The notes: generated by a model not told the origin, from the letters alone. 64,000 bases of DNA from Gammaproteobacteria bacterium (GCA_965243395.1 CBDEUS010000002.1:576001-640000); one strand, 5' to 3'; counted from the stretch's first letter, positions 1,117 to 35,892 are shown. A program made the numbers and translations.

Positions 1117-1257
1117 AAATCAATTCCAAGAAATATTTTCTTAGCTAATGTAAATTCAGACATAGATTTTGAACAAATAGCTATAATATGGTCTAACAAA
1201 AATGCTGTGAATAAAAACGGCGCTAATCCTAACATCAAGTACATTCATGCGTAACAA

Positions 1258-2655: not shown

Positions 2656-2679
2656 CTATAACTTGCAGAAATTATCAAA

Positions 2680-3999: not shown

Positions 4000-4002
4000 C
4001 GA

Positions 4003-4557
4003 GTGGCTAACAAGAATAATCTGCGCATTATTGGTGGCGTGTGGCGAAGCCGACGCATTCATTTTATAAATTCAAAGAAAATTCGTCCCACTCCTGACCG
4101 TGTGCGTGAAACACTTTTTAATTGGCTAGCAAATGATGTAGAAGGTGCATTATGTTTAGACTTGTTTGCGGGTAGTGGGGCATTAGCTTTTGAGGCGGTT
4201 TCACGCGGTGCGAAGCATGCGGTCTTAGTAGAAGAAGATGCCAAGATTGTCTCTCAGCTTAATCTGCAAAAAGAAGTTTTACATACGAATGCAATCGAAA
4301 TTAAGCAGCAGAATGCATTGAAATACATACAAGCAGAATCTAAGCAATACGATATTATATTTTTAGATCCACCATTCAATTCTGATCTTTTAGAAAAAAC
4401 AGTGCCGCTTGTGTTAGAACACCAGTTGTTGTCATCGAAAGGGTTATTGTATGTTGAGTCTGCGGCTAACCAATCTGTTCCCGAATCGCTAAAAACATTA
4501 ACTTGTGTGCGTGAAAAAATTAGCGGCGAAGTACGATATGCTCTTTATTCCTACTAG
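4003..4557 (+). CDS. rsmD: 16S rRNA m2G966 methyltransferase RsmD
   Basis: LRIIGG, RPTPDRVRETLFNWL, DLFAGSG, DPPF. Confidence 0.96.
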   Translation: MANKNNLRIIGGVWRSRRIHFINSKKIRPTPDRVRETLFNWLANDVEGALCLDLFAGSGALAFEAVSRGAKHAVLVEEDAKIVSQLNLQKEVLHTNAIEIKQQNALKYIQAESKQYDIIFLDPPFNSDLLEKTVPLVLEHQLLSSKGLLYVESAANQSVPESLKTLTCVREKISGEVRYALYSY

Positions 4558-4608
4558 TTTTCATCATACTCATAAATAATTTGCCATAAACGGTATTATT
4601 CATATTAA

Positions 4609-5103
<495 letters not shown>

Positions 5104-5139
5104 TTTTTAGCGTTTGTAGAGACCACACAATAGCGGTCC

Positions 5140-6873: not shown

Positions 6874-7475
6874 TGCAGTTTGTTTATTTTGCAAGCCCAA
6901 TGTGTTCGTGGTGTTGGGGGTTTTCGCCCGTTATACAACAATTAAAAAAAGCTTACGGCACAGACAAAATTCGTTTGATGTTAACTCCTTTTAGAGTGGA
7001 TACCACAGAACCCATGGATGATGCCTTACGTAATTACGTATTAGGGCAGTGGCATAAAGTACACCAGACTACAGGGCAGGAATTTGATTTTCGTTTCGCG
7101 ATGCCAAAAGATTTTATTTATAACACCACTTTGGTGTGCCTAAGCATTAAAGCCTTTCGTAAACAACGTGTAGCTCTGGAATTAGAATATATGCATGATT
7201 TGCAACACATTTACTATACTGAGAATCAAGATCTCACTAACGAAGAGGTATTAATAAAAATTGCAGAAAAATTTGGCTTGAATATTTTGCAATTTAAGCA
7301 AGACTTACATAGCGAATTAATAAAGGAAGAGCTGCAAAAGGACTTTTCTTTTTGTAAGCAACTCAATGTGCGTAGCTATCCGACCCTCATGCTTGAAAAG
7401 AATGATGAATATAGTGTTTTGGCGAATGGTTATTTAGCTTTTGCAGAATTGCAGCAGAGAATAGAGTCTTTTTGA
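6873..7475 (+). CDS. DsbA-family thioredoxin-fold protein
   Basis: PMCSWCWGF CxxC motif and C-terminal SYPTL cis-Pro motif; start overlaps the ggt stop. Confidence 0.88.
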   Translation: MQFVYFASPMCSWCWGFSPVIQQLKKAYGTDKIRLMLTPFRVDTTEPMDDALRNYVLGQWHKVHQTTGQEFDFRFAMPKDFIYNTTLVCLSIKAFRKQRVALELEYMHDLQHIYYTENQDLTNEEVLIKIAEKFGLNILQFKQDLHSELIKEELQKDFSFCKQLNVRSYPTLMLEKNDEYSVLANGYLAFAELQQRIESF

Positions 7476-7483
7476 GATATTTA

Positions 7484-7654
7484 TTATTTGTTTTCAGTGC
7501 TAGAGCTGTTTTTATCAGGTTCAGCCTCAGTTTCTTTATAGCTGTTACGCAGAATTTCAATTTGCCAGGTTTGCAAAGTATCTGCATCCGTGAGCACAAA
7601 AGTATCTTTGCCAACCTTGCTAATGGAATAGCGTTCTTTGTCCGAAAGATCCAT
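7484..7654 (-). CDS. Possible small hypothetical protein (56 aa, MDLSDKERYS...)
   Basis: C-terminal half of the 111-aa ORF 7484..7819 reads protein-like from the internal ATG at 7654; no family recognised. Confidence 0.3.
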   Translation of the reverse strand: MDLSDKERYSISKVGKDTFVLTDADTLQTWQIEILRNSYKETEAEPDKNSSSTENK

Positions 7655-7824
7655 GAAAGTGCAAATATAGTTCCGTAAGTAATTAAGCTCATAATTTTGA
7701 AGCCTTTCACAAAATTTCACTTCTAGATAAAGACACAAGGCTGGATCTTGGCCATGAGTGACAAAGTGATATGACAACCGGTCTATATTGATAAGTAAAC
7801 GGAATGTGAACCGTAACAACGATT

Positions 7825-8703
7825 TTAGTAAATATCACCTGAACTCAAAAAGTTAGAAATTTCTTCTAATACAGACTCGGCGATGAGAATTCTTCCATGC
7901 CCATTGCCAGTAGTTGAGAATAATCTAATTCCCGGATGAGTTGCGATTTCTTCAGCTTCTGCATGTGGTACGACTCGATCCTTATGATCATGAATGATTA
8001 GAGTTTGACCCTGGAAATTTTGTAAAAAATTTTTTGTTGTCATTGTGTCAATACTGCGATTAGCAATTGATTGCAGTTTTTGGTGAAAAATTTCTAAAAT
8101 TATATTTGGTAATTGCATGGCGTGGATAAAAGAAGCAAATATACCTGCTAATCGATTAGGCCCCGCAATCAGCACAATTTTATTTATCCTTTCAAGCTGT
8201 TTAGTGTTTTGTGTCATATCGATAGCAAGTGCATTAGTCATTGCACCAAACGAATGGCCGATTAATACATCGATTGGTTGTACATGTGAAGCAATGGCGA
8301 GTAAAGCTTGAGTGTTACGGAGCAGGTTTGTTTGTTTGCCGGAAGAATTACCATGTGCTGGCCCGTCAAAGGCAAGCACATTGAACCCGTCATCTAATAG
8401 ACGCTGAATGATATGTGAAAAGTTTAATGCATGTCCTCCCCAACCATGCGCACATAATACTGTTTTCGCGTTATTAGGATTATTAGATGTTTGCCATTGA
8501 TAAGCAGCTAACTGATATTCGCCACTATTTATGAAAAATTGCTGGGCTCGTTGAAGTAGGGCTTTTTCAGATTGGTTTAGTTCTTGTTTACGACTTCGTG
8601 GCTGGCAAAAAAAAGACCACGCTATATCGGCGGCCAATGAAGGTGATATTTTTGCTAACAATCTGACAATGCGACTGAATAAAATTTTTAATAAATTTTC
8701 CAC
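7825..8703 (-). CDS. Alpha/beta-fold hydrolase
   Basis: HGWGG oxyanion motif, DGPAHG, GHSFG nucleophile elbow, HD..D.VVP and GH catalytic motifs. Confidence 0.9.
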   Translation of the reverse strand: MENLLKILFSRIVRLLAKISPSLAADIAWSFFCQPRSRKQELNQSEKALLQRAQQFFINSGEYQLAAYQWQTSNNPNNAKTVLCAHGWGGHALNFSHIIQRLLDDGFNVLAFDGPAHGNSSGKQTNLLRNTQALLAIASHVQPIDVLIGHSFGAMTNALAIDMTQNTKQLERINKIVLIAGPNRLAGIFASFIHAMQLPNIILEIFHQKLQSIANRSIDTMTTKNFLQNFQGQTLIIHDHKDRVVPHAEAEEIATHPGIRLFSTTGNGHGRILIAESVLEEISNFLSSGDIY

Positions 8704-8720
8704 AAAACATAGCTAAGTAA

Positions 8721-9533
8721 TCAATGTTGGCACTGTACACAAAAAAAGCTGCTGCGTTGGCCGATAGTGCGAACTCTTATTGGACTTTTGCATACCGGGC
8801 ATGGCTTTCCGGTTTGTTTATAAACATTCAGCTGATTAGCAAAATAGCCGGGTTTACCCTCTTCGTTAACAAAATCACGTAATGTCGTACCTCCCGATTT
8901 AATCGCTTTGGTCAAAACTTCTTTTATACTGTTTGCAAGGGCTTCATAACGCTTTAATGAGATTCTTCCTGCCGCACGTTGCGGGTGTATACCGCTTAAA
9001 AATAATGATTCGCTAGCATATATATTTCCTACTCCCACTACAATATGACTATTCATAATAAAGTTTTTGACATTGATTTTTTTACCTTGGGCGAGACGGT
9101 GTAAATAAGCACCCGTAAAATCTTTACTTAATGGTTCAGGGCCAAGATTTTGCAACAAATCGTGCTGCAACGGATCTTTGTTTGTCCATAAGACAGCACC
9201 GAATCTTCTTGGGTCATGAAAGCGCAAAGTTTTTTTGCTTAATACAAAGTCAATATGGTCATGCTTGCGTGGTATAGCTTGATGATTAACCATACGCAAA
9301 CTTCCCGACATACCTAAATGAATGATTAAATGCCCCACATCAGTACAAAACAATAAATATTTTGCGCGACGCTTAATATTCTGTATTTTTTTACCTTGAA
9401 GCTTTTTTTTAAGGTTACGAGGAACAGGCCAGCGCAAGCTAGATTGCCGGATTACAACATCCTCAATTTTGTTATTTTTTACATGAGGCGTTATGCCACG
9501 CCGAGTAGTTTCTACTTCTGGTAGTTCAGGCAT
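8721..9533 (-). CDS. mutM: Formamidopyrimidine-DNA glycosylase
   Basis: MPELPEVE, HLGMSG, GVGNIYA, C-terminal CPVC...CVQCQ zinc finger. Confidence 0.98.
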   Translation of the reverse strand: MPELPEVETTRRGITPHVKNNKIEDVVIRQSSLRWPVPRNLKKKLQGKKIQNIKRRAKYLLFCTDVGHLIIHLGMSGSLRMVNHQAIPRKHDHIDFVLSKKTLRFHDPRRFGAVLWTNKDPLQHDLLQNLGPEPLSKDFTGAYLHRLAQGKKINVKNFIMNSHIVVGVGNIYASESLFLSGIHPQRAAGRISLKRYEALANSIKEVLTKAIKSGGTTLRDFVNEEGKPGYFANQLNVYKQTGKPCPVCKSPIRVRTIGQRSSFFCVQCQH

Positions 9534-9537
9534 CCCA

Positions 9538-10545
9538 TCAAGCTTGGTAGAAAGCTTCTATTTCGACTAACAAATTTTCTCTACACATGTCACCGAGTAG
9601 CAATGCACGCGGAGTGGTACTAGATAATCTTGCTGCAAGTACTTGCTTAATTTGATCAACATTTTCACGTCGGCGAATATAAACCTTCATATACAATAGA
9701 TCATCTTGAGCGTTTAACTGGGTATGATATTTATCATTTGCATGGGCTACTAAGGTCTCAACGTTATTAATGGCTTCATTGAGTTGTGCACAAACGTCGT
9801 TGATATGTAAAGTTTCATGTCCAACAATGCTGGCAGTACCTGATACATAGAAATGCGTACGTTGTCCCCAGGTCTTTATCAAGCCACGCGAAAACAATGG
9901 TTGAGTATGCTGTTCTTCAACAGGATAGTTGTATGCGCTGGTCTGACGAGGATTTTCTACTGCGGTTCCGGGAGTGTCACTGGCTAAAAAATATATTTGG
10001 AATGTATTTTCATGATTTCCGATCACAGTCGCTGCAGGATAAACCTTGGTCTTGATGTTACATGCTTGCATGGCTAGTTTACGACCATGACAAAATGTTT
10101 CGTAGCGGTTTAACTGGGAATGCTGTGAATCTTTAGCGGTAATATCAGGAAAGAAATTCCAGGTACGTAATAAATGCTTGCAAGTCGTATTTTCTAAACA
10201 TTGGTAAATCTCGCAGTAGGCTTTTTGAGTTAAAGACTGCAAACAAGTTTTGCTTGAGCAGGCTAATTCAATAAACCCAAACAACATTTGAGGTGTGTGC
10301 GCATAACGAATGTTTTGATAGCGATCTTGTGATACTTGCTGATCAGTAAACCAATATTGCGCAAACAAATTCGAACCTAAAAGTTCCAGTTCAGTTTGGA
10401 TGGATAAACAGTCTGGATGCAGACTTGCATTTTTGCCGAAATAAAGATGTGTCAGCAAAGCCTGTTGCTTAGGTAACACAGCCTTGTCTTCGCTTACCAC
10501 AATATCCAATGCTGCTTGATTAATATGGTTTATATCTACACTCAT
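9538..10545 (-). CDS. Chorismatase of the FkbO/Hyg5/XanB2 type
   Basis: LLRTWNF, YPAATVIG, ENPRQTSAYNYP, FSRG, SGTASIVGHET and C-terminal CRENLLVEIEA motifs. Confidence 0.85.
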   Translation of the reverse strand: MSVDINHINQAALDIVVSEDKAVLPKQQALLTHLYFGKNASLHPDCLSIQTELELLGSNLFAQYWFTDQQVSQDRYQNIRYAHTPQMLFGFIELACSSKTCLQSLTQKAYCEIYQCLENTTCKHLLRTWNFFPDITAKDSQHSQLNRYETFCHGRKLAMQACNIKTKVYPAATVIGNHENTFQIYFLASDTPGTAVENPRQTSAYNYPVEEQHTQPLFSRGLIKTWGQRTHFYVSGTASIVGHETLHINDVCAQLNEAINNVETLVAHANDKYHTQLNAQDDLLYMKVYIRRRENVDQIKQVLAARLSSTTPRALLLGDMCRENLLVEIEAFYQA

Positions 10546-10640
10546 TGAGTTACTGTAACGCGCTTACCGCGGTCTAGCTAGCAAACAAAATTAATTTAAA
10601 GATTAATTTAACCGATTAGTTTGAAACTAAGACAGTTAAA

Positions 10641-11996
10641 TCATGCGCGACGACGACGAATACCAATAAATACGCCAATAAACAGTGCCGTAAGCGGCAC
10701 AATTAATAAATAAGTGGCGGCAAGAGTAGCGATAGAGGTATTGCTAAATTCTATGGAAACATCAGGTGGCTGATAGGGTAATAAAGAAATACGTTGGTCA
10801 TCGTGGGCTAACCACTGCAATACACTTACAATTAATGTCAGATTTTCGCCGTGGCCGATATATGCATTCGCAGCGAAGTCGCTGTCACCCACGATTACAA
10901 TACGTTGCTTGTTGCGCTTATTTAGGGTGCGATGGAGACTCGCTGCCATCAGCAAAGGTCCTTCAGTATCACCTGCAGTACTATCAAACACCACGTTTTC
11001 GCCGCTAAGCACATCAGTTTCGGACCAAGCGCGAGGCAAAGAGTAAAACAATGGTTTGACCTGCCAATTATCTTGAATCTCAATTGCAATTCCTGATGCA
11101 AATGGGAATAAGGTTTGATTTTTTAAATTTTGGGTTATGGCGTGTTGTTGATATTCCACAACCGGAACAACAGCTGGATGTTTGATACCTAGAATAGAAC
11201 GTAATTCCTGATTTGCATCAATGATCGTGCCATCTATCCAACTTAAGCCAAGTTTGTTGGCTAAAGCGGCTAGAAGCTGCTGTTCAGCCACAGGGTCACT
11301 TAACCATAATAAATTTCCTCCGCTTTCAACATAATCTAAAATTAATTTTTCTTCGCCTTGCAATAATGCTGCTTGGGGTGCGGCTATGACTAATACTGAA
11401 ATGTTATCTGGAATAACTGTTGTTTGTAACAAGTTTAAATCTTGTACTTCTACTCCGCTGGTTTCTAATGTCTGTTTTAAAGTGCTGTAACCTTGGTTAT
11501 CTTCTGCAAAGGGGTTACGTTCGCCATGACCTGATAAAAATGCCACCCAAGGTTTGTCTTGTCTGGTTAAACGTTGTAGAGCATTAGTTATTTCACCTTC
11601 AGAAATAACATCTATAATTTCAAAACGACTTTGATAATCAATACGCATTTGATTGGCATTATGAAGATGTAGTTCTTTCGCAAGCTCAATATGTTTATCA
11701 ATATCAAGAAATTTAAAGTCGATATCCGGTTTGAATTTTAAATACTTATCAATTTGCCGTTTTATTGTATGACGCTCACTCGCCGCATTGCGTGTTAGGG
11801 CAGTCATCAATAACTCATCATTTACTTGTTGCAAAACTGTACGGCTTGTATCAGTCAGAGTGTTGCGATTATCGCGAGTCCAATCAAACACATAATGATA
11901 TTTTTGTGTTAACCAAGCACAGCAGCCTATGAAGGTTAGTAACAACACCAATTCCAACCACTTGCGAAGACGCTGTCGTGTAACTTTACCTTTCAT
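10641..11996 (-). CDS. GldG-like ABC transporter accessory protein
   Basis: DWT...TL N-terminal motif, FLSGHGER, GDSDF, terminal TM helices; operon with permease and ATPase. Confidence 0.85.
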   Translation of the reverse strand: MKGKVTRQRLRKWLELVLLLTFIGCCAWLTQKYHYVFDWTRDNRNTLTDTSRTVLQQVNDELLMTALTRNAASERHTIKRQIDKYLKFKPDIDFKFLDIDKHIELAKELHLHNANQMRIDYQSRFEIIDVISEGEITNALQRLTRQDKPWVAFLSGHGERNPFAEDNQGYSTLKQTLETSGVEVQDLNLLQTTVIPDNISVLVIAAPQAALLQGEEKLILDYVESGGNLLWLSDPVAEQQLLAALANKLGLSWIDGTIIDANQELRSILGIKHPAVVPVVEYQQHAITQNLKNQTLFPFASGIAIEIQDNWQVKPLFYSLPRAWSETDVLSGENVVFDSTAGDTEGPLLMAASLHRTLNKRNKQRIVIVGDSDFAANAYIGHGENLTLIVSVLQWLAHDDQRISLLPYQPPDVSIEFSNTSIATLAATYLLIVPLTALFIGVFIGIRRRRA

Positions 11997-12732
11997 TGTT
12001 GAGTCTTCTGATGCACAGGATTAAAAATAAAGCTATAAATAAGAGAAAGTAAGCTACATGCTGTGTATCAATTAAACCTGTTAATAAATTTGTTAAGTGT
12101 GGAAAATTAGATAAATAAAGAAATAACTCACTACTGCTTGCAGTAGCAGATCCAGACAAATACAGCATAACGAAAAGTAAGAACAAGCCTAGAATTGCTG
12201 CAGTAGCAATTATTGGCACACGTGTGAGATTAGCGATAAAAAGCGCTGCAGCACTAAACGAACTAATAAATAGTAAGACTGCTAAAAAAGCTGCTGCTGT
12301 TTTGCCATAGTCAATCGCAGTGAAGTAGCCCAATATCAATGCATAACCGCTGCATATCAGAGTAAATATAAAAGCTGAGATGGCCAAGGCAAAATATTTA
12401 CCCAACACAACTTGGGTAGCACTCACAGGGGCACTGTTTAATAATAAATGACTACCGGATTGGCGTTCTTCGGTGCTACTGCGTACCGCAAATAAAGGCA
12501 CTAATAAAATTCCAACTGCTCCTACCCAAAACATATAAGGAGCGATTACTAAATCAGTTAAGCCTGGGGCGCGTTCTAAACCTACCAGTTTGGCTTGCAT
12601 CTCGTTATAAAAAGTATTAAGCAGAATGAGTAACAGTAATCCCAATACCAATAACGCGACAGAAAACAATATCCATGCAATTGGCGAAACCCAAATGCGT
12701 TTTAATTCATTTTGTGTAATTGTCCAGATCAT
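11986..12732 (-). CDS. GldF-like ABC-2 permease
   Basis: About six hydrophobic segments; ELKR..VSP, EERQSG, VLGKY motifs. Confidence 0.85.
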   Translation of the reverse strand: MIWTITQNELKRIWVSPIAWILFSVALLVLGLLLLILLNTFYNEMQAKLVGLERAPGLTDLVIAPYMFWVGAVGILLVPLFAVRSSTEERQSGSHLLLNSAPVSATQVVLGKYFALAISAFIFTLICSGYALILGYFTAIDYGKTAAAFLAVLLFISSFSAAALFIANLTRVPIIATAAILGLFLLFVMLYLSGSATASSSELFLYLSNFPHLTNLLTGLIDTQHVAYFLLFIALFLILCIRRLNNER

Positions 12733-25153: not shown

Positions 25154-26410
25154 ATGAACTTAACAGAATTAAAGAAAAAACCAGCATCGGAGTTAATCGA
25201 TATTGCTGCAGAAATGAAGATAGACAATCTATCTCGCTCACGTAAACAAGACATTATTTTTGCAATACTCAAGGCGCATGCAAAAAATGGTGAAGATATT
25301 CTTGGTGATGGTGTTCTTGAAATTTTGCAAGATGGGTTTGGGTTTTTGCGTTCTTCTGATTGTTCTTACTTAGCGGGCCCAGATGATATCTATGTCTCAC
25401 CAAGCCAAATACGACGTTTTGGTTTACGTACAGGAGATACGATTTCAGGGAAAATTCGCCCACCTAAAGATAGTGAACGTTATTTTGCAATGCTCAAAGT
25501 TGACAAGATCAACTTTGATAAACCGGAAAATGCTAAGCGCAAAATATTATTTGAAAACTTAACTCCATTACATCCCGACCAGCGTTTAAAGCTTGAGCGT
25601 GGTAATGGTAGTACTGAAGATATTACTGCGCGCATTATTGATATTTGTGCACCAATCGGAAAGGGCCAACGCGGTCTAATCGTATCCCCGCCAAAAGCGG
25701 GAAAAACATTAATGCTGCAAAATATTGCGCAAAGCATTACTTCCAATCATCCCGAATGTTTCTTGATTGTATTGTTAATTGATGAAAGACCCGAAGAAGT
25801 GACAGAAATGTCTCGCATGGTACAAGGTGAGGTGGTATCCAGTACTTTCGATGAGCCAGCAAGCAGACATGTTCAAGTTGCAGAAATGGTAATTGAAAAA
25901 GCTAAGCGGTTAGTTGAGCATAAAAAAGATGTCGTCATTTTATTAGATTCTATTACACGCCTAGCACGTGCATATAACACTGTCGTACCAGCATCGGGCA
26001 AAGTATTAACGGGTGGTGTTGATGCTAATGCATTACAACGACCTAAGCGCTTCTTTGGTGCTGCACGAAATATTGAAGAAGGTGGCAGCCTTACTATTCT
26101 CGCTACCGCACTTGTTGAAACCGGTTCTAAAATGGATGAAGTTATTTATGAGGAATTTAAAGGTACAGGTAACATGGAAATCCACATGGACCGTCGCATC
26201 GCAGAAAAACGAGTCTTTCCTGCGATAAATATCAATAGATCGGGTACGCGTCGTGAAGAATTGATCACTGACCAAGACGAGCTACAAAAGATTTGGGTGC
26301 TGAGAAAATTCTTGCATCCTATGGATGAAATTGAAGCGATGGATTTCATGCTGGGGCGTATGCAAACCACAAAAACCAATGATGAATTTTTCGAAGCAAT
26401 GAAAAGATAG
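25154..26410 (+). CDS. rho: Transcription termination factor Rho
   Basis: [32 protein letters not shown]. Confidence 0.99.
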
Positions 26411-26460
26411 GTTTAAGAGACTTTCAAATGGAATAACAAGGTTGCTATCAAACAATTGAT

Positions 26461-27051
26461 CTATTTTTTATTTTCTAGAACCTGAAACACTCGGTCTAAC
26501 ATATTGTCAATTGTCTCTGAACTGGATTGTAGTTGGGCGAGCACTCGGTAGCCAAATAATAAAGTCATTAAAAAACGAGCTAATTGAATAGGGTCTTCAT
26601 CGCATATAAGCTCCTCATTTTCCTGAGCCTTAACGAGTAAGACGTAAATTCGTGATTCAATTTCTTGCAACTTAAGTTGTACGTAGTAACGTAATTCTTT
26701 CTCAGTTTCTGGAATTTCAAAGGCACCATGTACTAATAAACAATGCGCATCAGGCGTTCTATTTGTGCTGTTATCTGCCACCAAATTAAAAAAACTTCTT
26801 AATGCATCAAGACTTCTGGCATGTTGCTTTGCACAGTCGTCTATCAAGTCAATTTGGCGTTTAGTGTAGTGTTCTATTACTTCAGTATATAAACCTGATT
26901 TGTTTACAAATGCTGAATAGATGCTACCAGGTTGTAGCCCTGTCGCTTTTGTTATGTCCTTAATGGTTGTGCGTTGAAATCCGTTACGCAAGAAAATTTT
27001 TGAAGCTTTATCAAGTACATCGCTTCTTTCGAATGCAGGTTGCCTCCCCAT
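26461..27051 (-). CDS. TetR/AcrR family transcriptional regulator
   Basis: MGRQPAF N-terminus, HTH TGLQPGSIYSAFVNKSGL, HCLLV C-terminal domain motif. Confidence 0.93.
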   Translation of the reverse strand: MGRQPAFERSDVLDKASKIFLRNGFQRTTIKDITKATGLQPGSIYSAFVNKSGLYTEVIEHYTKRQIDLIDDCAKQHARSLDALRSFFNLVADNSTNRTPDAHCLLVHGAFEIPETEKELRYYVQLKLQEIESRIYVLLVKAQENEELICDEDPIQLARFLMTLLFGYRVLAQLQSSSETIDNMLDRVFQVLENKK

Positions 27052-27097
27052 ACTAGTATATCCCTAAACATTAGAATTACATTCTTAAAACTATGCT

Positions 27098-27124
27098 TTG
27101 TTCATTAAGATTATTAATGAACAA
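27098..27124. promoter_or_regulatory. Inverted repeat TTGTTCATTAA-N5-TTAATGAACAA, candidate operator
   Basis: Perfect 11-bp arms about 50 bp upstream of the TetR start. Confidence 0.5.
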
Positions 27125-27370
27125 GTAATCAATTATTAAAGTAAATAAATGCAAATGTAGATTATTTCTTATCAATATAAATAATTTGTAATAACTGTCA
27201 ATGCAAGATTGTTGAATCACTAATGATTTGTGAAATAAATAAGCTTATTCAAATAAAATAAGCAAGAGTATGTGTGTAAGGTTATAAATATGAGTAGTTT
27301 ATGCACAATTTAATTTGCATAAAATTGTGCAAATTAAAGAAGTTTAAACTGAATGAAATTGAAAAAATTA

Positions 27371-27386
27371 TTGAGCAAATGCTCAA
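27371..27386. promoter_or_regulatory. Palindrome TTGAGCA-AA-TGCTCAA, candidate TetR operator
   Basis: Perfect 7-bp arms in the AT-rich region upstream of the TetR gene. Confidence 0.45.
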
Positions 27387-27395
27387 GTATTTATA

Positions 27396-27673
27396 TTAAA
27401 TTGCTTTAAAGCCAATGTCTTTTCGATAAAATATATCAGGCCATGAAATTTGTTTTGTTAGTTCGTAAGCATTCTGCTGAGCTTCGCTAACCGAATCTCC
27501 AAGTGCAGTCGCAGCAGAAGGCCCATAAATTTTCAATGCATCTTTTTGAAATTCATCCACAAAACCTTCAACTAAAGGCGCTTCAGGTTCGACAATAGTT
27601 AAGTCAATGTTGTTTTGTAGCGCGAAAGATTTAAGAGCAGGTATATCTTCAGCATCAATAGCTATGTTTTCAG
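27396..27673 (-). pseudogene. purD: Internally deleted second copy of purD
   Basis: 27503-27673 is nearly identical to 35595-35765 and about 27423-27513 to 34648-34738. The junction is at the 11-nt microhomology GTGCAGTTGCA. The copy ends WPDIFYRKDIGFKAI*. Confidence 0.92.
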
Positions 27674-27683
27674 GTATAAACTC

Positions 27684-27905
27684 CTAGCCATATTCATCCG
27701 TTACTTTAACTTGCCAACCATGCATTTGCCGTATCGGCAAGTGATCGAAATCAGTTGAAAAATTGAGTTTATAAAATCCATGTTCGGTCGTGATTGATTC
27801 TTCAAATGCATATACAGATGTGAATGCAATAAATAATGTAAATATACAAAATAAGTTGATTTTCATTCGATGGATGAGATTAGTTAATAAAAAATAATTA
27901 AACAA
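27684..27905 (-). pseudogene. Truncated secreted protein, YtkA/FixH-like N-terminal fragment
   Basis: Signal peptide ending VYA, then HGFYKLNFSTDFDHLPIRQMHGWQVKVTDEYG; TAG stop lies 10 nt from the purD fragment. Family assignment is from recalled resemblance only. Confidence 0.5.
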
Positions 27906-28172
27906 TTCATATTAAGTAATCGAAGTAAATCATTATTTAAGGGTGAACTTTTTTATAAAAAATTAAGGCGATGTATTAATATTTTTAAAAAATAATATAA
28001 ATATTTAACATAACTTTTGCGTAGTTCTAAATATAGCTGCTTAAATTTTAAAAAATACAGACTTATTTAAATATTGCTATATGCACAAATTTTGTAAACA
28101 AGTTACAATTAAAATACATAATAAAAATAATAACTACAAAGAGGCTAGTAAATATATTCATATGTTTAACTA

Positions 28173-31100
28173 ATGCATAAAGTAATTTACCTTTTAGGTT
28201 TTTTGGTAAAGTATTTTTGCTTTTTTGTATTAATTATTTTATCTGGCGTATCTTTCTCAGCGCCTGAAGACCCGCAAGAAGGAGGCGCCTGGGGTCCAGT
28301 AATTCCAGCCCCATTAGTTGCTGTCTCTGCTGCAAATCTTCCTGATGGCAGAATTCTAATGTGGTCGGCTAATGAACGAACAAATTTTAGAAACTCGACA
28401 ATTGAGTTTGCCTATACCGCGGTTTGGGACCCTCAAAGTAACAGTTTTCTCGAGATTCCTCACCTCACCCACGATGTATTTTGTGCCCATCAAGTGTTAC
28501 TTGAAGATGGACGTGTTTTTGTAAATGGGGGTCGCAATCGGTCAGATAGCCCATGGACTAGTATTTTTGATCCATCTACTAACCAATGGGTGCAACTCAA
28601 TAACATGAATAGAGGTCGTTGGTATCCTACAACAGTTGCATTACCAAATGGCACCGTTATGACTTCACTCGGTAGTGGCGGGGGGAATACGGGAGAGCTT
28701 TGGGATGGATCTAGTACTTGGAATTATATAGGTGGTATCAATTTTGATGAGCCGATATTGAATTTCCCGCATCCTGAAGCTAAATGGTGGCCTATCATGC
28801 ATGTGGCGCCTGACGGTCGTATTTTTCATTCTGGACCTACACCTGACATGCATATAATTGATCTTTCTGGAATAGGATCTATCACACAAACAAACACACA
28901 CAACGATTGGTACCCAAAACATGGCACAACAGTTATGTATGACGAGGGTAAATTACTTGTTGCAGGTGGATGGGCTGATGAAAGTGATACGACAAGCGTA
29001 AATAATGCAATGGTTATTGATTTAAATAACCCAAGTCCGCAAATAACGCCCATTGCTCCCATGATTCATTCTAGAAAATTTCACAGTGGAGTTACTTTGC
29101 CAAATGGAGAGGTATTAATAGTGGGAGGCAATACCTCAGGCAAAAAAACTAACGATGAAGGCTCAATTTATTCCGTAGAAATTTGGAATCCCAATACAGG
29201 ATTATGGCGCGAGGGTGCATCGATGAGTATTCCTCGTAATTATCATTCAGTAGTACTTCTCATGTTAGATGGCCGGGTTTATGCAGGTGGTGGGGGTCTA
29301 TGTGATTGTAGTGCAGATCATCAGGATCAGCAGATTTATTCTCCGCCATATTTATTTAATCCAGATGGCACCGTGGCTACACGCCCAATAATATTTAGTG
29401 TTCCAAGCGTGGTAGAGGCGGGTCAAACCATCAACGTTTCTGCAACACCGGGATTATCGCAATTTTCTATTGTAAAGATGTCTTCTGCAACACATGCAAT
29501 TAATACAGATTTGCGTTATTTGCCCGTCGTAATGAATGAGGTAAGTGCTGGAGATTATGAACTTACATTACATTCAAATATTAATGTAATGACACCAGGT
29601 TATTGGATGTTATTTGGATTGAATCCTCAAGGAACCCCTTCAGTTGCAAAAGCTATTCGAGTTTCAACACAAGGCCTTGAAACTGGTCCACCTAGTTTAA
29701 AACAAATGTCGGATAAAATTAGTGACCAAGATGAAGTTATTAACTTAACTCTAGTGGCTAATGATCCAGACGGCGACACATTAACTTTTTCTGCTACTGG
29801 TTTACCACAAGGATTATCACTTGATAGTGCTAGCGGTGTAATAAATGGATTAACAGAGCAGACTGGCATTTATAACACTTCTATTACAGTGGATGATGGT
29901 AATGGGGGGAGTGCGAACACATCGTTTTCATGGACAGTGCAAAGTGGAGGTGGAGGTGGAGGTGGGCCACCTCAAACTGAAACATTCGAATTTGAAAACC
30001 TGTTGGTAGCCGATAGCGATGGCACAACAAACTCTTCAATTGCTTCATCGGGCGCGGCAAGTAACGGTCAATACTTTTTATATCACAGCAATGCGGTCGG
30101 TGAATACGTTACGTTCCCGATAACCACGCCAAATACTGGTGCACATGATTTTGAGTTGCGCTATCACTTATCAAAATATCGTGGCACATTCCGAGTAGAG
30201 GTTGCCGATAATCTAAGTGGTCCCTACACTCAGATTGGCGTTATGAATGATACGGTCAGCAATGGCAGTTCTGTTCGTAGCCTATCCATGACAACCACAT
30301 TTAGTAGTGCGGGGACTAAGTATCTACGCTTCACCGTCACCGGATCGAGTCCTATAGGTAATGAGCGTATGGGCTTAGATAAAGTTGATGTGACCTCTAG
30401 TGGCGGGGGTGGATCAAACAACAATCCACCGACGATTACAACACCTGGGGCACAAACGAATAACGAAGGCGATGGCGTAAGTGGGTTTTTTATTACTGCG
30501 AATGATCCGGATGGTGATACCTTAATCTTTAGCGAGAGTGGACTGCCAACAGGATTAACAATTAATCCAAGTACTGGTGAGATTACAGGATCTACTACAA
30601 CAGCAGGCAGTTTTAATCCAACCATTACAGTGGATGATGGTAATGGGGGGAGTGCGAACACATCGTTTTCATGGACAGTGCAAAGTGTAGGCGGCAACAA
30701 TCCACCGACGATTACAACACCTGGGGCACAAACGAATAACGAAGGCGATGGCGTAAGTGGGTTTTTTATTACTGCGAATGATCCGGATGGTGATACCTTA
30801 ATCTTTAGCGAGAGTGGACTGCCAACAGGATTAACAATTAATCCAAGTACTGGTGAGATTACAGGATCTACTACAACAGCAGGCAGTTTTAATCCAACCA
30901 TTACAGTGGATGATGGTAATGGGGGGAGTGCGAACACATCGTTTTCATGGACAGTGCAAAGTGGAGGTGGAGGTGGAGGTGGGCCACCTCAAACTGAAAC
31001 ATTCGAATTTGAAAACCTGTTGGTAGCCGATAGCGATGGCACAACAAACTCTTCAATTGCTTCATCGGGCGCGGCAAGTAACGGTCAATACTTTTTATAT

Positions 31101-34100
31101 CACAGCAATGCGGTCGGTGAATACGTTACGTTCCCGATAACCACGCCAAATACTGGTGCACATGATTTTGAGTTGCGCTATCACTTATCAAAATATCGTG
31201 GCACATTCCGAGTAGAGGTTGCCGATAATCTAAGTGGTCCCTACACTCAGATTGGCGTTATGAATGATACGGTCAGCAATGGCAGTTCTGTTCGTAGCCT
31301 ATCCATGACAACCACATTTAGTAGTGCGGGGACTAAGTATCTACGCTTCACCGTCACCGGATCGAGTCCTATAGGTAATGAGCGTATGGGCTTAGATAAA
31401 GTTGATGTGACCTCTAGTGGCGGGGGTGGATCAAACAACAATCCACCGACGATTACAACACCTGGGGCACAAACGAATAACGAAGGCGATGGCGTAAGTG
31501 GGTTTTTTATTACTGCGAATGATCCGGATGGTGATACCTTAATCTTTAGCGAGAGTGGACTGCCAACAGGATTAACAATTAATCCAAGTACTGGTGAGAT
31601 TACAGGATCTACTACAACAGCAGGCAGTTTTAATCCAACCATTACAGTGGATGATGGTAATGGGGGGAGTGCGAACACATCGTTTTCATGGACAGTGCAA
31701 AGTGTAGGCGGCAACAATCCACCGACGATTACAACACCTGGGGCACAAACGAATAACGAAGGCGATGGCGTAAGTGGGTTTTTTATTACTGCGAATGATC
31801 CGGATGGTGATACCTTAATCTTTAGCGAGAGTGGACTGCCAACAGGATTAACAATTAATCCAAGTACTGGTGAGATTACAGGATCTACTACAACAGCAGG
31901 CAGTTTTAATCCAACCATTACAGTGGATGATGGTAATGGGGGGAGTGCGAACACATCGTTTTCATGGACAGTGCAAAGTGGAGGTGGAGGTGGAGGTGGG
32001 CCACCTCAAACTGAAACATTCGAATTTGAAAACCTGTTGGTAGCCGATAGCGATGGCACAACAAACTCTTCAATTGCTTCATCGGGCGCGGCAAGTAACG
32101 GTCAATACTTTTTATATCACAGCAATGCGGTCGGTGAATACGTTACGTTCCCGATAACCACGCCAAATACTGGTGCACATGATTTTGAGTTGCGCTATCA
32201 CTTATCAAAATATCGTGGCACATTCCGAGTAGAGGTTGCCGATAATCTAAGTGGTCCCTACACTCAGATTGGCGTTATGAATGATACGGTCAGCAATGGC
32301 AGTTCTGTTCGTAGCCTATCCATGACAACCACATTTAGTAGTGCGGGGACTAAGTATCTACGCTTCACCGTCACCGGATCGAGTCCTATAGGTAATGAGC
32401 GTATGGGCTTAGATAAAGTTGATGTGACCTCTAGTGGTATGGCATTAACAATAGATCCATTCAGTTCAGCACCTATTGCGACGGGCATAAGTAAAACATT
32501 TATTGGATCAGCTCAGGGTAGTGGCGTAATAGAATACAGCTGGTCATTTGGCGATGGGACAACGACTCCGTTCACAACTGACCCGAGCGCAACACACACT
32601 TATACCGCACCTGGGCGATATCTTGTTGCACTACAAGTACGCAATGAAAGTGAACAAGACAGCTTAACCATTACCCAAGCGGTCCATTTACCTATTGCAG
32701 GTACACCCATATCCGATTCCACGATCTTATATGAATCATTAACAGGCGTAGATCGAGTGTGGAATGTGAATCCTGATAATGATTCAGTAGCTGTTATTGA
32801 TGTTGCAACACGAACTAAAATTGCAGAAATAGCAACCAATACTAAACCAGTTGCACTTACGATTAATCCAAATAGTTCTGAAGTGTGGATAGCTAATAAA
32901 GGGGCTGCTACGATTACACGTATCTCACTTACTACACTCTCAACCGTGAATGAGATTGCCTTACCAGCTGGCTCACGACCCCATGGTATTGTATTTAATG
33001 CAGTAACAGATAGAGCCTTTGTTGCGTTAGAAGCTTTAAAACAAGTTGTACGTGTTAACGCTACTACCAATCAAGTTGAAAATACTTTAGATGTACCAGA
33101 AGGTGTAAGACATCTTGCCTTATCGATTGATGGTTCTGAATTATATGCTCCCGTTTTTCATACTCCAAAATTACTTGGAGAAGATACGGCTACCCCATCC
33201 TTAACAGATGGAAATGGAAATTTAGTAGGCGGTATCATAAACCGCATTCAAGTAAGCAATTTAACGCTTAATAGTACTCCGATAGTAGTTCCTTATAGTA
33301 ATGTCGCTTTTTCTGAGCACACAGGCCCAGGTTTGCCAAATTATTTACGTGGTCTGGCTGTCTCTCCAGATGGTATTAATGCTTTCATTCCTTCTAAACA
33401 AGACAATATACTTTCCGGAGCTTTGCGAAATGTACCAAGTGGACAATTGTTAGATCATGAACACACCGTTAGAGCGATTACATCTCATATTAATTTAGCT
33501 ACTAGTAATTCTGATATTAGCAATCAAATAGATCACGATAATGTAAGCGCTTTATCCGCGGCTGTATATGGACCATTCGGAAGTTACTTGTTTGTAGCGT
33601 TGGAAGGAACGCGAATGGTATCTGTGGTCGATGCATTCCAAAAAGAAGAATTGTTCCGTTTTCCATCAGGACGAGCGCCTCAAGGGGTTGTTGCAAGTCC
33701 AGATGGTCAGTTACTTTTTGCACATAACTACCTTGACCGCACAGTTTCTATTCACGATGTTTCTAAAATAATTTTAGAGGGCGTAAACCAGCAAACCTTA
33801 TTAGCTTCTGTATCAGTTGTTGGAAGTGAGTCTCTTGCATCTAATATTTTATTAGGTAAACAGCATTTTTATGATGCCCTCGACCCGAGATTGTCGTTGG
33901 AATCTTACATGTCATGTGCAATATGTCATAACGACGGTGGCCATGATGGACGAATATGGGACTTCACGCAATTTGGTGAGGGTTTAAGAAATACTACGAC
34001 TCTCAATGGACAAGCAGGTACTACAATTGGTCCGGTTCACTGGACGGGCAATTTTGATGAGATCCAAGATTTTGAAGCACAGATACGCAATTTTGCTGGC

Positions 34101-34610
34101 GGAACTGGACTGATGAATGATAGTGACTTTAATGAAGGAACACGTTCCCAACCTTTGGGAGATACTAAAGCTGGATTCAGTGCTGATCTCGATGCATTAG
34201 CAGCTTATGTAAATTCTTTAGCCACTGTACCCGCTAGCCCATATCGAGATTCTAATGGACAACTTACTGCAGCTGCACAAACAGGTAAACAACTGTTTGC
34301 AACTTTTAATTGTGCAAGTTGCCATAGTGGCGACTTTTTCTCAGATAGTGCAGTAGATACACGTCATGACATTGGAACTATAGATACCGCAAGCGGCAAT
34401 CGTCTTGGCGCAAGTTTAGATGGATTTGATACTCCTACGTTAAAAGGCTTATGGTTAACACCTCCATACCTGCATGATGGTTCTGCTAATACCATTTCAG
34501 AAGCCATACTTGCACACACCAATTTAATTATTAGCAGTACAGAAGCGGATTCAATCAGCGAATACTTAATGCAAGCAGACGAACAAGAGTCTGCACCCCT
34601 TCCGCCTTAA
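28173..34610 (+). CDS. Giant secreted multidomain protein: copper-radical oxidase + 5 Ig-like + 3 CBM6/35-like + PKD + YVTN beta-propeller + di-haem cytochrome c peroxidase-like domain
   Basis: Hydrophobic N-terminus. HDVFC, RWYP, RNYHS and ATHAIN give the Cys-Tyr cofactor and Cu ligands. DPDGDTL.FS..GLP.GL Ig repeats; WSFGDG PKD; NPDNDSVAVID propeller; CAICH and CASCH haem sites; TPTLKGLWLTPPYLHDGS. Confidence 0.9.
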   Translation: MHKVIYLLGFLVKYFCFFVLIILSGVSFSAPEDPQEGGAWGPVIPAPLVAVSAANLPDGRILMWSANERTNFRNSTIEFAYTAVWDPQSNSFLEIPHLTHDVFCAHQVLLEDGRVFVNGGRNRSDSPWTSIFDPSTNQWVQLNNMNRGRWYPTTVALPNGTVMTSLGSGGGNTGELWDGSSTWNYIGGINFDEPILNFPHPEAKWWPIMHVAPDGRIFHSGPTPDMHIIDLSGIGSITQTNTHNDWYPKHGTTVMYDEGKLLVAGGWADESDTTSVNNAMVIDLNNPSPQITPIAPMIHSRKFHSGVTLPNGEVLIVGGNTSGKKTNDEGSIYSVEIWNPNTGLWREGASMSIPRNYHSVVLLMLDGRVYAGGGGLCDCSADHQDQQIYSPPYLFNPDGTVATRPIIFSVPSVVEAGQTINVSATPGLSQFSIVKMSSATHAINTDLRYLPVVMNEVSAGDYELTLHSNINVMTPGYWMLFGLNPQGTPSVAKAIRVSTQGLETGPPSLKQMSDKISDQDEVINLTLVANDPDGDTLTFSATGLPQGLSLDSASGVINGLTEQTGIYNTSITVDDGNGGSANTSFSWTVQSGGGGGGGPPQTETFEFENLLVADSDGTTNSSIASSGAASNGQYFLYHSNAVGEYVTFPITTPNTGAHDFELRYHLSKYRGTFRVEVADNLSGPYTQIGVMNDTVSNGSSVRSLSMTTTFSSAGTKYLRFTVTGSSPIGNERMGLDKVDVTSSGGGGSNNNPPTITTPGAQTNNEGDGVSGFFITANDPDGDTLIFSESGLPTGLTINPSTGEITGSTTTAGSFNPTITVDDGNGGSANTSFSWTVQSVGGNNPPTITTPGAQTNNEGDGVSGFFITANDPDGDTLIFSESGLPTGLTINPSTGEITGSTTTAGSFNPTITVDDGNGGSANTSFSWTVQSGGGGGGGPPQTETFEFENLLVADSDGTTNSSIASSGAASNGQYFLYHSNAVGEYVTFPITTPNTGAHDFELRYHLSKYRGTFRVEVADNLSGPYTQIGVMNDTVSNGSSVRSLSMTTTFSSAGTKYLRFTVTGSSPIGNERMGLDKVDVTSSGGGGSNNNPPTITTPGAQTNNEGDGVSGFFITANDPDGDTLIFSESGLPTGLTINPSTGEITGSTTTAGSFNPTITVDDGNGGSANTSFSWTVQSVGGNNPPTITTPGAQTNNEGDGVSGFFITANDPDGDTLIFSESGLPTGLTINPSTGEITGSTTTAGSFNPTITVDDGNGGSANTSFSWTVQSGGGGGGGPPQTETFEFENLLVADSDGTTNSSIASSGAASNGQYFLYHSNAVGEYVTFPITTPNTGAHDFELRYHLSKYRGTFRVEVADNLSGPYTQIGVMNDTVSNGSSVRSLSMTTTFSSAGTKYLRFTVTGSSPIGNERMGLDKVDVTSSGMALTIDPFSSAPIATGISKTFIGSAQGSGVIEYSWSFGDGTTTPFTTDPSATHTYTAPGRYLVALQVRNESEQDSLTITQAVHLPIAGTPISDSTILYESLTGVDRVWNVNPDNDSVAVIDVATRTKIAEIATNTKPVALTINPNSSEVWIANKGAATITRISLTTLSTVNEIALPAGSRPHGIVFNAVTDRAFVALEALKQVVRVNATTNQVENTLDVPEGVRHLALSIDGSELYAPVFHTPKLLGEDTATPSLTDGNGNLVGGIINRIQVSNLTLNSTPIVVPYSNVAFSEHTGPGLPNYLRGLAVSPDGINAFIPSKQDNILSGALRNVPSGQLLDHEHTVRAITSHINLATSNSDISNQIDHDNVSALSAAVYGPFGSYLFVALEGTRMVSVVDAFQKEELFRFPSGRAPQGVVASPDGQLLFAHNYLDRTVSIHDVSKIILEGVNQQTLLASVSVVGSESLASNILLGKQHFYDALDPRLSLESYMSCAICHNDGGHDGRIWDFTQFGEGLRNTTTLNGQAGTTIGPVHWTGNFDEIQDFEAQIRNFAGGTGLMNDSDFNEGTRSQPLGDTKAGFSADLDALAAYVNSLATVPASPYRDSNGQLTAAAQTGKQLFATFNCASCHSGDFFSDSAVDTRHDIGTIDTASGNRLGASLDGFDTPTLKGLWLTPPYLHDGSANTISEAILAHTNLIISSTEADSISEYLMQADEQESAPLPP
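29883..32437 (+). repeat. Intragenic tandem repeat, 1017-bp period, about 2.5 copies, with a nested 276-bp Ig unit
   Basis: ATTACAGTGGATGATGG recurs at 29883, 30900 and 31917; AACAATCCACCGACG recurs at 30420/30696 and 1017 bp later. No mismatches noticed by eye. Confidence 0.95.
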
Positions 34611-34614
34611 TGGG

Positions 34615-35892
34615 TTATTTATTCACAGCTTTGTATCCAATATCAGATCGATAAAACATATCAGGCCATGAAATTTGTTTTGTTAGTTCGTAGGCATTCT
34701 GCTGAGCTTCACTAACCGAATCTCCTAGTGCAGTTGCACATAACACGCGGCCACCATTAGTGACTATTTTATCTTTTTCAATTTTAGTGCCGGCATGAAA
34801 AACTTTTTGTGAAGCAGAATCTTGTTTATCTAACCCTTGTATGGTGTCACCTTTTTGATAACTTTCTGGATAACCTCCTGCTGCTAACACCACGCCTAGT
34901 GCAGTACGATCATCCCAATCGATAGTGTGTTGATGCAGTTGTTTATTTACTCCAGCTATACACAACTCGGCAAAGTCCGATTGCATGCGCATTAAAATAG
35001 GTTGTGTTTCAGGATCTCCAAAACGGCAATTAAATTCCAATACATACGGATTACGATTTTTATCAATCATTAATCCGGCATATAAGAACCCAATATATGG
35101 AGTGCCTTGTTTTGCAAAGCCTTGCACGACTGGTTGTATTACTTGTGCGAGTATTTTTTCATGCATTACATCGTCAATAATTGGTGCTGGAGAATACGCT
35201 CCCATGCCACCTGTGTTGGGCCCCTTGTCCCCTTCATCTCGTGCTTTATGGTCTTGTGAGCTGGCTAACGGCAATACATGTTCACCATCGATCATACATA
35301 TAAAGCTAGCTTCTTCGCCCTGAATAAATTCTTCCACCACAATGCGATGACCAGCTTCACCAAAACTGGAGCCACTTAGCATTTGTTTTGCACATTGCAA
35401 TGCTTCATCTAAATGCATTGCAATCACAACACCTTTTCCAGCAGCCAACCCGTCCGCTTTAATAACAAGCGGGAAAGATTGAGATGAAATATAATTTTCA
35501 GCTTTTTGATAATCCGTAAACACGGCATAAGCACCTGTAGGGATTTCGTGTTGTTGCATAAACTGTTTGGCAAAAGCTTTTGAGCCTTCTAGTTGTGCAG
35601 TTGCAGCAGAAGGCCCATAAATTTTCAATGCATCTTTTTGAAATTCATCCACAATACCTTCAACTAAAGGCGCTTCAGGTCCGACAATAGTTAAGTCAAT
35701 GTTGTTTTGTAGCGCGAAAGATTTAAGAGCAGGTATATCTTCAGCATCAATAGCTATGTTTTCAGTTTTTGCCTCGCTGGCAGTTCCTGCGTTGCCGGGG
35801 GCTACAAAAACTTTTGAAACTTTGCTGGATTGTGCAATCTTCCATGCAAGAGCATGTTCACGGCCACCGCCGCCTACAATTAATATTTTCAT
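34615..35892 (-). CDS. purD: Phosphoribosylamine--glycine ligase
   Basis: GGGGREHALAW, VGPEAPL, KADGLAAGKGV, GPNTGGMGAYSP, RFGDPETQ. Confidence 0.99.
   Translation of the reverse strand: MKILIVGGGGREHALAWKIAQSSKVSKVFVAPGNAGTASEAKTENIAIDAEDIPALKSFALQNNIDLTIVGPEAPLVEGIVDEFQKDALKIYGPSAATAQLEGSKAFAKQFMQQHEIPTGAYAVFTDYQKAENYISSQSFPLVIKADGLAAGKGVVIAMHLDEALQCAKQMLSGSSFGEAGHRIVVEEFIQGEEASFICMIDGEHVLPLASSQDHKARDEGDKGPNTGGMGAYSPAPIIDDVMHEKILAQVIQPVVQGFAKQGTPYIGFLYAGLMIDKNRNPYVLEFNCRFGDPETQPILMRMQSDFAELCIAGVNKQLHQHTIDWDDRTALGVVLAAGGYPESYQKGDTIQGLDKQDSASQKVFHAGTKIEKDKIVTNGGRVLCATALGDSVSEAQQNAYELTKQISWPDMFYRSDIGYKAVNK

Follow-up and report, generated by a model that had tools for sequence, protein, structure and literature searches.

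The locus described here raises the question of whether a single bacterial polypeptide can unite a copper-radical oxidase with a di-haem c unit, and what such a union might achieve. It lies in a 64,000-nucleotide stretch of DNA from a Gammaproteobacteria bacterium (GCA_965243395.1, CBDEUS010000002.1:576001-640000), which is termed the window below, with positions counted from its first letter. On the plus strand, 28173..34610 is an open reading frame (ORF) of 2145 codons with zero internal stops in the translated window, and its 2145-amino acid (aa) product reads in order as copper-radical oxidase, scaffold, propeller and di-haem unit. Pfam places domains at both ends of this product, in agreement with the first-pass annotation of this DNA, which had proposed one polypeptide carrying both activities. 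The oxidase and haem motifs named in that annotation were each located where it had put them, namely HDVFC (aa 100-104), RWYP (aa 149-152), RNYHS (aa 355-359), ATHAIN (aa 439-444), CAICH (aa 1915-1919), CASCH (aa 2047-2051) and TPTL...PYLHDGS (aa 2087-2104), as was the YVTN propeller ahead of the di-haem domain, which was found to be seven-bladed (aa ~1518-1881). Sequence comparisons moreover indicate that the fusion is a conserved, widespread and uncharacterised bacterial family, the possible function of which is weighed below.

Architecture of the fusion protein

The oxidase end comprises a Kelch propeller (aa ~34-400; 28272..29372), delimited by Pfam and structure-library alignment, and a galactose oxidase (GO)-like E-set domain (aa 404-497; 29382..29663), these and all other features of the fusion gene being on the plus strand. 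Pfam reports Kelch_6, Kelch_1 and GO-like_E_set (E 3e-16, 60 bits against a cut-off of 25), while Glyoxal_oxid_N, which together with the Kelch matches spans aa 78-375, scores 36.9 bits and thereby falls slightly below its cut-off of 37.5. When the N-terminal 520 aa were compared with solved structures, 9g8h and 9g43, both entered as 'galactose oxidase', were matched over aa 25-503 at E 3e-94, followed by 6ryv (E 2e-76), 1gof (E 3e-71) and 5c86 (E 1.5e-63), with Streptomyces GlxA (4unm) as a much weaker match (E 1.5e-30). Tyr151 (28623-28625), Tyr357-His358 (29241-29246) and, in the E-set domain, the fourth copper ligand His441 (29493-29495) align with the copper ligands of 9g8h, and Cys104 (28482-28484) of HDVFC aligns with the cross-link Cys in HDMFC of the same structure; in Fusarium numbering, the copper and cross-link residues are presumably C228, Y272, Y495, H496 and H581. 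None of these five residues varies in the 43 aligned oxidase domains (the query and 42 from 69 loci with a long GO match), and all of the 120 best oxidase relatives introduced below retain the equatorial Tyr and the axial Tyr-His. By every sequence test, the N-terminal module is predicted to be a copper-radical oxidase, its Cu/Tyr-Cys site being complete, and it appears AA5_2-like, given that the galactose oxidase and alcohol oxidase (AlcOx) structures far outscore GlxA and that Glyoxal_oxid_N stays below its cut-off.

At the opposite end, the YVTN-type propeller (32724..33815; near-invariant PSKQDN at aa 1740-1745) is followed by a di-haem c domain (aa ~1890-2134; 33840..34574) that holds CAICH (33915-33929), the inter-haem Trp1957 (34041-34043), CASCH (34311-34325) and His2115 (34515-34517). 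CCP_MauG (PF03150) was matched at aa 1891-1965 (E 3e-7, 31.6 bits against a cut-off of 25.6) over positions 3-75 of its 149-position model, and RoxA-like_Cyt-c at aa 2084-2110. The best match of the C-terminal 265 aa among solved structures was the gamma subunit of hydrazine synthase (HZS; 5c2v_C, E 2.6e-14), and the next were Shewanella CcpA (3o5c, E 5e-13), 9qdt, MacA and a Nitrosomonas enzyme; MauG chains matched weakly (E 2e-5) and over short stretches. The best structure matches at either end of the protein are well outside what chance would give. An AlphaFold2 (AF2) model of the last 645 aa, built on a 40-sequence alignment, reached a pLDDT of 83.9 and a pTM of 0.88. Its residues 18-381 form a seven-bladed propeller, with pLDDT mostly above 90, and a helical di-haem domain comes after, in which the lower confidence near the first haem is attributed to the model having been built without haem. 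The best Foldseek match of this model was HZS beta (5c2v_B, E 2.5e-18, TMt 0.76). In the C-terminal unit as modelled, propeller and di-haem c domain pack against each other.

All 105 aligned haem units retain the four haem Cys, both haem His and the inter-haem Trp, and 103-105 of them retain both CxxCH sites, His1956-Trp1957 and the helix NFDExQDFExQIR; the propeller equals the haem domain in conservation, dozens of its residues being near-invariant, among them those of PSKQDN, GxPNYL and ALEG. At the inter-haem position, Trp1957 corresponds to the FWDGR Trp of 3o5c and 9qdt. Opposite His2115, CcpA (3o5c) has the Met of its 'EAVNTM' stretch, which we take to be the axial ligand of the electron-entry haem of bacterial cytochrome c peroxidases (bCcPs), and among the 105 units this column is occupied 84 times by His, 13 times by Asn and 5 times by Met. 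No His was found aligned to the distal 'sigHhwqeG' loop of 3o5c, which closes the peroxidatic haem of resting bCcPs, and His1924, close to that position, is poorly conserved (18/105). On this evidence the di-haem unit is a member of the bCcP/MauG superfamily on a branch of its own, since HZS gamma is its best match, CcpA the next and MauG a weak one, and it appears to be neither a canonical bCcP, from which it departs at the axial Met position and in the missing distal His loop, nor a demonstrable MauG. The di-haem peroxidase-like domain of the first-pass annotation is thus upheld as regards its superfamily (two CxxCH sites, PF03150) but not as a canonical bCcP (His2115, no distal loop). We infer that the first haem is probably open and five-coordinate, because the distal His loop of bCcPs is missing, and that the second is probably His/His-ligated.

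The chain begins with MHKVIYLLGFLVKYFCFFVLIILSGVSFS/AP, which was read by eye, without a predictor, as a Sec-type signal peptide with a hydrophobic core (aa 1-30, ...SFS/AP; 28173..28262). Besides the Kelch repeats and a weak YNCE-type propeller, Pfam recognises five He_PIG stretches and a PKD domain (aa 1432-1502; 32466..32678). A first He_PIG immunoglobulin (Ig)-like domain (29678..29953), the DNA of which is 64% identical to the repeated He_PIG domains, leads into two and a half tandem 1017-bp units (29865..32437), a whole unit encoding one 160-aa module and two He_PIG domains. The 98-100% identity between the DNA copies points to a very recent amplification. The 160-aa module, present at aa 591-750 (29943..30422), aa 930-1089 and aa 1269-1426, matched no Pfam family even at E 10, and jackhmmer detected no copies of it in 239 other proteins and 80 genome loci. 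Among 1.84 billion representatives, however, it has 296 relatives at E <= 0.001, in two of which the matched stretch overlaps Pfam CBM_35 (P0253) or CBM_6 (P0268), and which further include GH115, GH28 and beta-helix proteins; carbohydrate-binding module (CBM) families 6/35 are likewise suggested, as a lead only, by ESM Atlas features with scores of 0.91-0.92. At that level the module is supported as a distant CBM6/35-like module and putative glycan binder, which bears out the carbohydrate-binding-like modules proposed at first sight. The same CBM6/35-like and He_PIG cassette also occurs, in three copies at 67% identity, in the RHS-repeat protein P0241 (2265 aa), which has no oxidase, and it would therefore seem to move between large surface proteins.

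That three near-identical 1017-bp repeats separate the oxidase and haem ends lends some substance to the idea of an assembly chimera joined through them, all the more as no short-read (Logan) contig bridges the repeats, the contigs of the isolate covering 27644-29912 and 32408-34687; gene remnants in the flanks might similarly speak for a decaying pseudogene. All 2145 codons are open, however, and the repeat is confined to the fusion gene in a search of its own 2-contig, 100%-complete genome, which leaves no alternative assembly path, while the same end-to-end architecture recurs in very many other genomes. The depth of the repeat unit in short reads is ~3-4x that of the flanks, as expected for three copies, this ratio being the only gauge of the exact copy number. 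Either artefact or decay is accordingly very improbable, and the idea is already close to refuted.

Distribution, variants and genomic neighbours

A search with the oxidase domain returned 1327 proteins of 1179-3754 aa at E <= 0.001, of which the best 120, query included, form the basis of all counts out of 120. Exactly two CxxCH sites, 129-138 aa apart, were found in 105 of these, one site in 1 and none in 14, so that the co-occurrence of AA5 and di-haem domains, for which a search had been recommended in the first-pass annotation, is seen in 105/120 best relatives. A pattern scan in which each species was represented by one genome yielded at least 597 matching stretches, at least 577 of which encode a relative of the haem unit. 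In the best 80 loci of that scan, oxidase sequence is present in the haem-unit frame in 74, including three cut by a contig end and two (L044 and L069) with the oxidase broken over neighbouring frames; in the remaining 6 the contig start falls before any oxidase sequence. L044 and L069 are long-read metagenome-assembled genomes, and their broken frames represent either sequencing frameshifts or decaying copies. A scan of metagenome contigs seeded with a stand-alone form of the haem unit gave 68/80 fused loci, 10/80 cut by a contig end and 2/80 stand-alone. Most haem units that appeared to stand alone were rejected as fragments beginning inside domains.

By depositor label, the holders belong to Pseudomonadota, Verrucomicrobiota, Acidobacteriota, Chloroflexota, Myxococcota, Deinococcota and Nitrospirota, and include Woeseiaceae, Burkholderiales, Steroidobacteraceae, Methylophilaceae, Polyangiales, Trueperaceae and a Nitrospira. 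The family is rare per genome, having been found in 2/400 other genomes that form an even sample of the window's phylum. The linker between oxidase and haem unit varies in length across relatives, in which the haem unit is often situated mid-protein with up to ~1775 residues after it. Two copies of the fusion are present in some genomes (L066, at 816-6455 and 6653-12301; L025; L012 and L063, which are from one genome), and in Variovorax robiniae they stand in tandem.

Within the best 120 oxidase relatives, the cross-link Cys (window aa 104) is replaced by Ala, in the motif HD[ML]FA[AG]H, in 23 proteins (P0029, P0044, P0047, P0052, P0057, P0059, P0060, P0062, P0063, P0065, P0070, P0075, P0081, P0082, P0086, P0088, P0090, P0094, P0096 and P0110-P0113). 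All 23 carry the di-haem unit, and the Cys is kept in 14/14 haem-less relatives. No compensating Cys was found elsewhere in the Ala variants; the alignment covered the first 560 residues, in which the fourth ligand His could not be scored in every protein. The variants are mutually close (52-55% identical to the query oxidase domain; 1480-1671 aa) and may therefore trace to few events, and the change is absent from the 124 GO domains of fetched loci that cover all five positions (hmmalign). If active, they would be natural copper-tyrosyl oxidases without a thioether, so far seen only with a haem unit attached, and they would provide a test of the purpose of the Tyr-Cys cross-link.

The flanking frames of the 80 genome loci were clustered, and one representative per family was scanned with Pfam. 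One same-strand neighbour family adjoins the fusion gene in 29/80 loci (downstream in 21, upstream in 8), and its representative is a SCO1/SenC protein (37.3 bits against a cut-off of 22.8). A second family, found in 8/80 loci and mostly directly upstream, is a fusion of an MbnP domain with a CCP_MauG di-haem domain (L029:5062-6945, with further cluster members in L002, L004, L008, L011, L057, L058 and L070). Both families point to copper handling and call to mind the Streptomyces GlxA system discussed below. No conserved gene for a partner cytochrome was detected among the clustered flanks of these loci.

In the window itself, the fusion gene has trxA, rho and a TetR regulator upstream, and purD, an AEC-type transporter gene, purH and dusB downstream. 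The TetR-family regulator (26461..27051, minus strand) is divergent from the fusion gene and, being part of the conserved backbone, is probably not dedicated to it. The order rho-TetR-purD is contiguous in G001 and G011 (both complete and of the same genus) and in G012. The 1.1-kb gap upstream of the fusion gene contains two remnants, both on the minus strand, namely an internally deleted purD remnant (27403..27673), at one edge of the insertion, and the first ~60 codons, with signal peptide and start, of a MauG-like di-haem gene (27684..27866). In the former, 27403-27513 matches the 3' end of purD at 89% identity and 27503-27673 an internal stretch of purD at 98%, and since TetR and purD are adjacent in relatives that lack the fusion gene, it marks an insertion scar. 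The latter has a full-length counterpart in the sister species G012, divergent from the fusion gene and upstream of it, and a full paralogue of 526 aa on the other contig of the window's own genome (L097:2-1321 and L088:1528-3105, both on the minus strand). The fusion gene is single-copy in its own genome; it was found in 1/14 other species of the genus (G012, at another place and split over two contigs) and was absent from all 10 other genera of the family that were searched. Taken together, these comparisons indicate a recently acquired accessory gene inserted beside purD. Rfam returned nothing in 26400-28400, and a promoter scan of the upstream gap gave counts at the shuffled background (12 found against 8.6 +/- 3.3). 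The fusion gene and the convergent purD end 4 bases apart (34608-34617), which is too close for a terminator to fit between them. Metagenome runs of two other studies, one of them labelled sediment, contain related strains at 95-99% identity, and none of the listed sequencing runs with this DNA is recorded as RNA.

Possible roles of the tethered di-haem unit

The reading that we favour, with a probability of roughly 0.55, is that of a Sec-exported multi-domain redox enzyme, the two ends of which would be functionally coupled by peroxide. The CBM-like modules would hold the oxidase on a glycan, where it would convert a primary alcohol to an aldehyde and O2 to H2O2, and the H2O2 would be taken up by the first, probably open, haem of the tethered unit. 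Oxidising equivalents would be shared between the haems through the invariant Trp1957 and spent on peroxide removal and on one-electron oxidation, for which the most attractive target would be the oxidase's own Cu(II)-Tyr site, thereby converted to the active radical, or else a second substrate. Copper would be supplied by Sco-type chaperones and haem attached by the Ccm system, the genes of which are present in the same genome. Known oxidase-peroxidase partnerships lend plausibility, by analogy, to an enzyme that activates or detoxifies itself, a picture that the frequent SCO1/SenC neighbour fits, and the scarcity of clearly stand-alone haem units (2/160 fetched loci) argues for functional coupling.

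A more specific proposal is that the tethered unit is a built-in radical generator, which would render the oxidase self-activating by long-range hole transfer: its own H2O2 would raise a MauG-like high-valent state over both haems via Trp1957, and this state would oxidise the Tyr without an outside oxidant. The subclade with Ala in place of Cys, all of it haem-fused, fits this proposal, since its members would be copper-tyrosyl oxidases able to dispense with the thioether, the haem unit reaching the higher potential then required; we nevertheless consider it only a tentative possibility, and on the whole a rather unlikely one.

A number of observations weigh against peroxide coupling of the two ends. 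Some 1000 residues of Ig-like domains lie between them, in a linker of variable length, which does not imply a fixed electron-transfer interface. His/His ligation is usually that of a low-potential haem, and a second haem that is probably of this kind would fit neither the electron-entry haem of bCcPs nor, in any obvious way, the strongly oxidising state of MauG type; the distal Gln/Glu pattern of bCcPs is likewise not clearly kept. In the 14 haem-less relatives the place of the haem unit is taken by FG-GAP/VCBS and Por-tail domains. Conversely, the propeller-di-haem unit is also found as a genuine stand-alone lipoprotein (P0199, P0213), so that it can work without a copper-radical oxidase, and the stand-alone forms at L101:1082-3196 and L137:2712-3983 are divergent to genes of the xanthine-dehydrogenase family for molybdenum hydroxylases (FAD, 2Fe-2S and MoCo subunits), with no oxidase on either of these short contigs. 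Finally, no Sco gene is adjacent in the window, several being located elsewhere in the genome. A complex prediction of the oxidase domain with the di-haem domain (model residues 385-645) and two haems gave an ipSAE of 0.00 in both runs, which counts neither way.

Some of these observations would sit comfortably with an independent second catalyst, which would share no more than the glycan-binding scaffold with the oxidase, would not activate it, and would turn over H2O2, the aldehyde made by the oxidase or some other small molecule at a site that propeller and first haem form together. The conservation of the propeller, which equals that of the haem domain, suggests a functional site over a spacer, the closest solved structures are those of the catalytic beta and gamma subunits of hydrazine synthase, and the unit not only exists in stand-alone lipoprotein form but is often found mid-protein, with the long extensions after it noted above. 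What renders such a catalyst doubtful is the very strong co-occurrence with the oxidase (74/80 and 68/80 loci), together with neighbouring genes that indicate no candidate second substrate. Peroxide coupling may also be set against a role in electron transfer, in which the enzyme would act as a dehydrogenase wired to redox proteins: the haems would replace O2 as acceptor for the reduced copper site, or would exchange electrons with an external partner. Quinoprotein and flavoprotein sugar dehydrogenases with a fused cytochrome domain offer a parallel for this, a probable His/His second haem is what electron-transfer cytochromes have, and the stand-alone forms beside the molybdenum hydroxylases could be the redox partners of those enzymes. 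Yet the oxidase residues for O2 chemistry are all intact, the first haem bears the hallmarks of a bCcP/MauG peroxide site, unlike a plain cytochrome, a long flexible linker makes a poor wire and a partner cytochrome gene is not conserved nearby, all of which makes this role clearly unlikely. Peroxide coupling remains the reading that we prefer.

Comparison with known systems

Copper-radical oxidases are valued industrial biocatalysts that drift into inactivity and need added peroxidase and catalase, and how nature sustains their activity has been worked out for one fungal pair alone and, partially, for Streptomyces GlxA. With oxidase and haem unit naturally in one chain, the question of activation becomes open to direct test, as the fusion is widespread in bacteria of soil, sediment and freshwater and is often found by a copper chaperone gene, and the family could supply self-sufficient oxidases. 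It also follows that the propeller-di-haem unit of hydrazine synthase has a large, unstudied family outside the anammox bacteria. No published description of an oxidase-di-haem fusion was found in our literature searches, which did not cover subscription journals, and this accords with the earlier remark that no characterised protein of such architecture was known; in a term search of two AA5 papers, cytochrome did not occur as a word, and heme occurred a single time, in connection with the fungal peroxidase pair. What is new against print is the covalent fusion, its hydrazine-synthase-like propeller-di-haem partner and its spread. The kinds of component (AA5_2-like oxidase, bCcP/MauG-superfamily di-haem unit, YVTN propeller, CBM and Ig domains) and the partnership of oxidase and peroxidase as separate proteins are already known. 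The window adds, as points of local interest, a recent insertion, an amplified CBM cassette and a shortened MauG-like neighbour.

With the Fusarium galactose 6-oxidase (1gof), Colletotrichum AlcOx (5c86) and 9g8h/9g43, the window oxidase shares the Kelch propeller, the E-set domain and a complete copper site. It differs from the Fusarium enzyme in being bacterial and in having no N-terminal CBM32, and from AA5_2 oxidases in general by the ~1600 residues that the window protein adds, the di-haem unit included. The residue that stacks over the Tyr-Cys in Fusarium GO, which we take to be Trp290, has no clean alignment with the window oxidase.

The di-haem unit shares with bCcP, MauG and MbnH (PF03150) the two CxxCH sites, the inter-haem Trp and the PTL...PY(F/L)HDG motif, whereas in comparison with bCcP it has a His at the position of the axial Met, no distal His loop and a distinct helix (NFDExQDFExQIR). 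The beta and gamma subunits of Kuenenia hydrazine synthase (5c2v) and the window protein have the same order of propeller followed by di-haem domain, although the inter-haem Phe of HZS gamma is a Trp in the window protein and the propeller is only 17% identical to that of HZS beta. Nothing suggests nitrogen chemistry for the window unit.

The nearest functional parallels are provided by systems in which oxidase and haem protein are separate. Copper-radical oxidases release H2O2 and lapse into an inactive, non-radical state from which peroxidases reactivate them, and in the tandem peroxidase-AlcOx pair of Colletotrichum, AlcOx has a dedicated peroxidase, secreted together with it, that comes into close contact and activates it by one-electron oxidation (PMC9770985). 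Streptomyces GlxA, for its maturation, requires both Sco, a chaperone, and DtpA, a peroxidase (PMC4736821). Both systems consist of an oxidase with a dedicated haem peroxidase, and the partnership of oxidase and haem that we infer by analogy for the window protein would differ in that the haem module is fused. The use of Sco by GlxA has a counterpart in the SCO1/SenC-like gene that neighbours the fusion in 29/80 loci of the window's relatives. The fungal and Streptomyces partners are b-type haem proteins, a class II peroxidase and a DyP respectively, whereas the window protein has two c-type haems in a unit of the bCcP/MauG superfamily, joined to a propeller.

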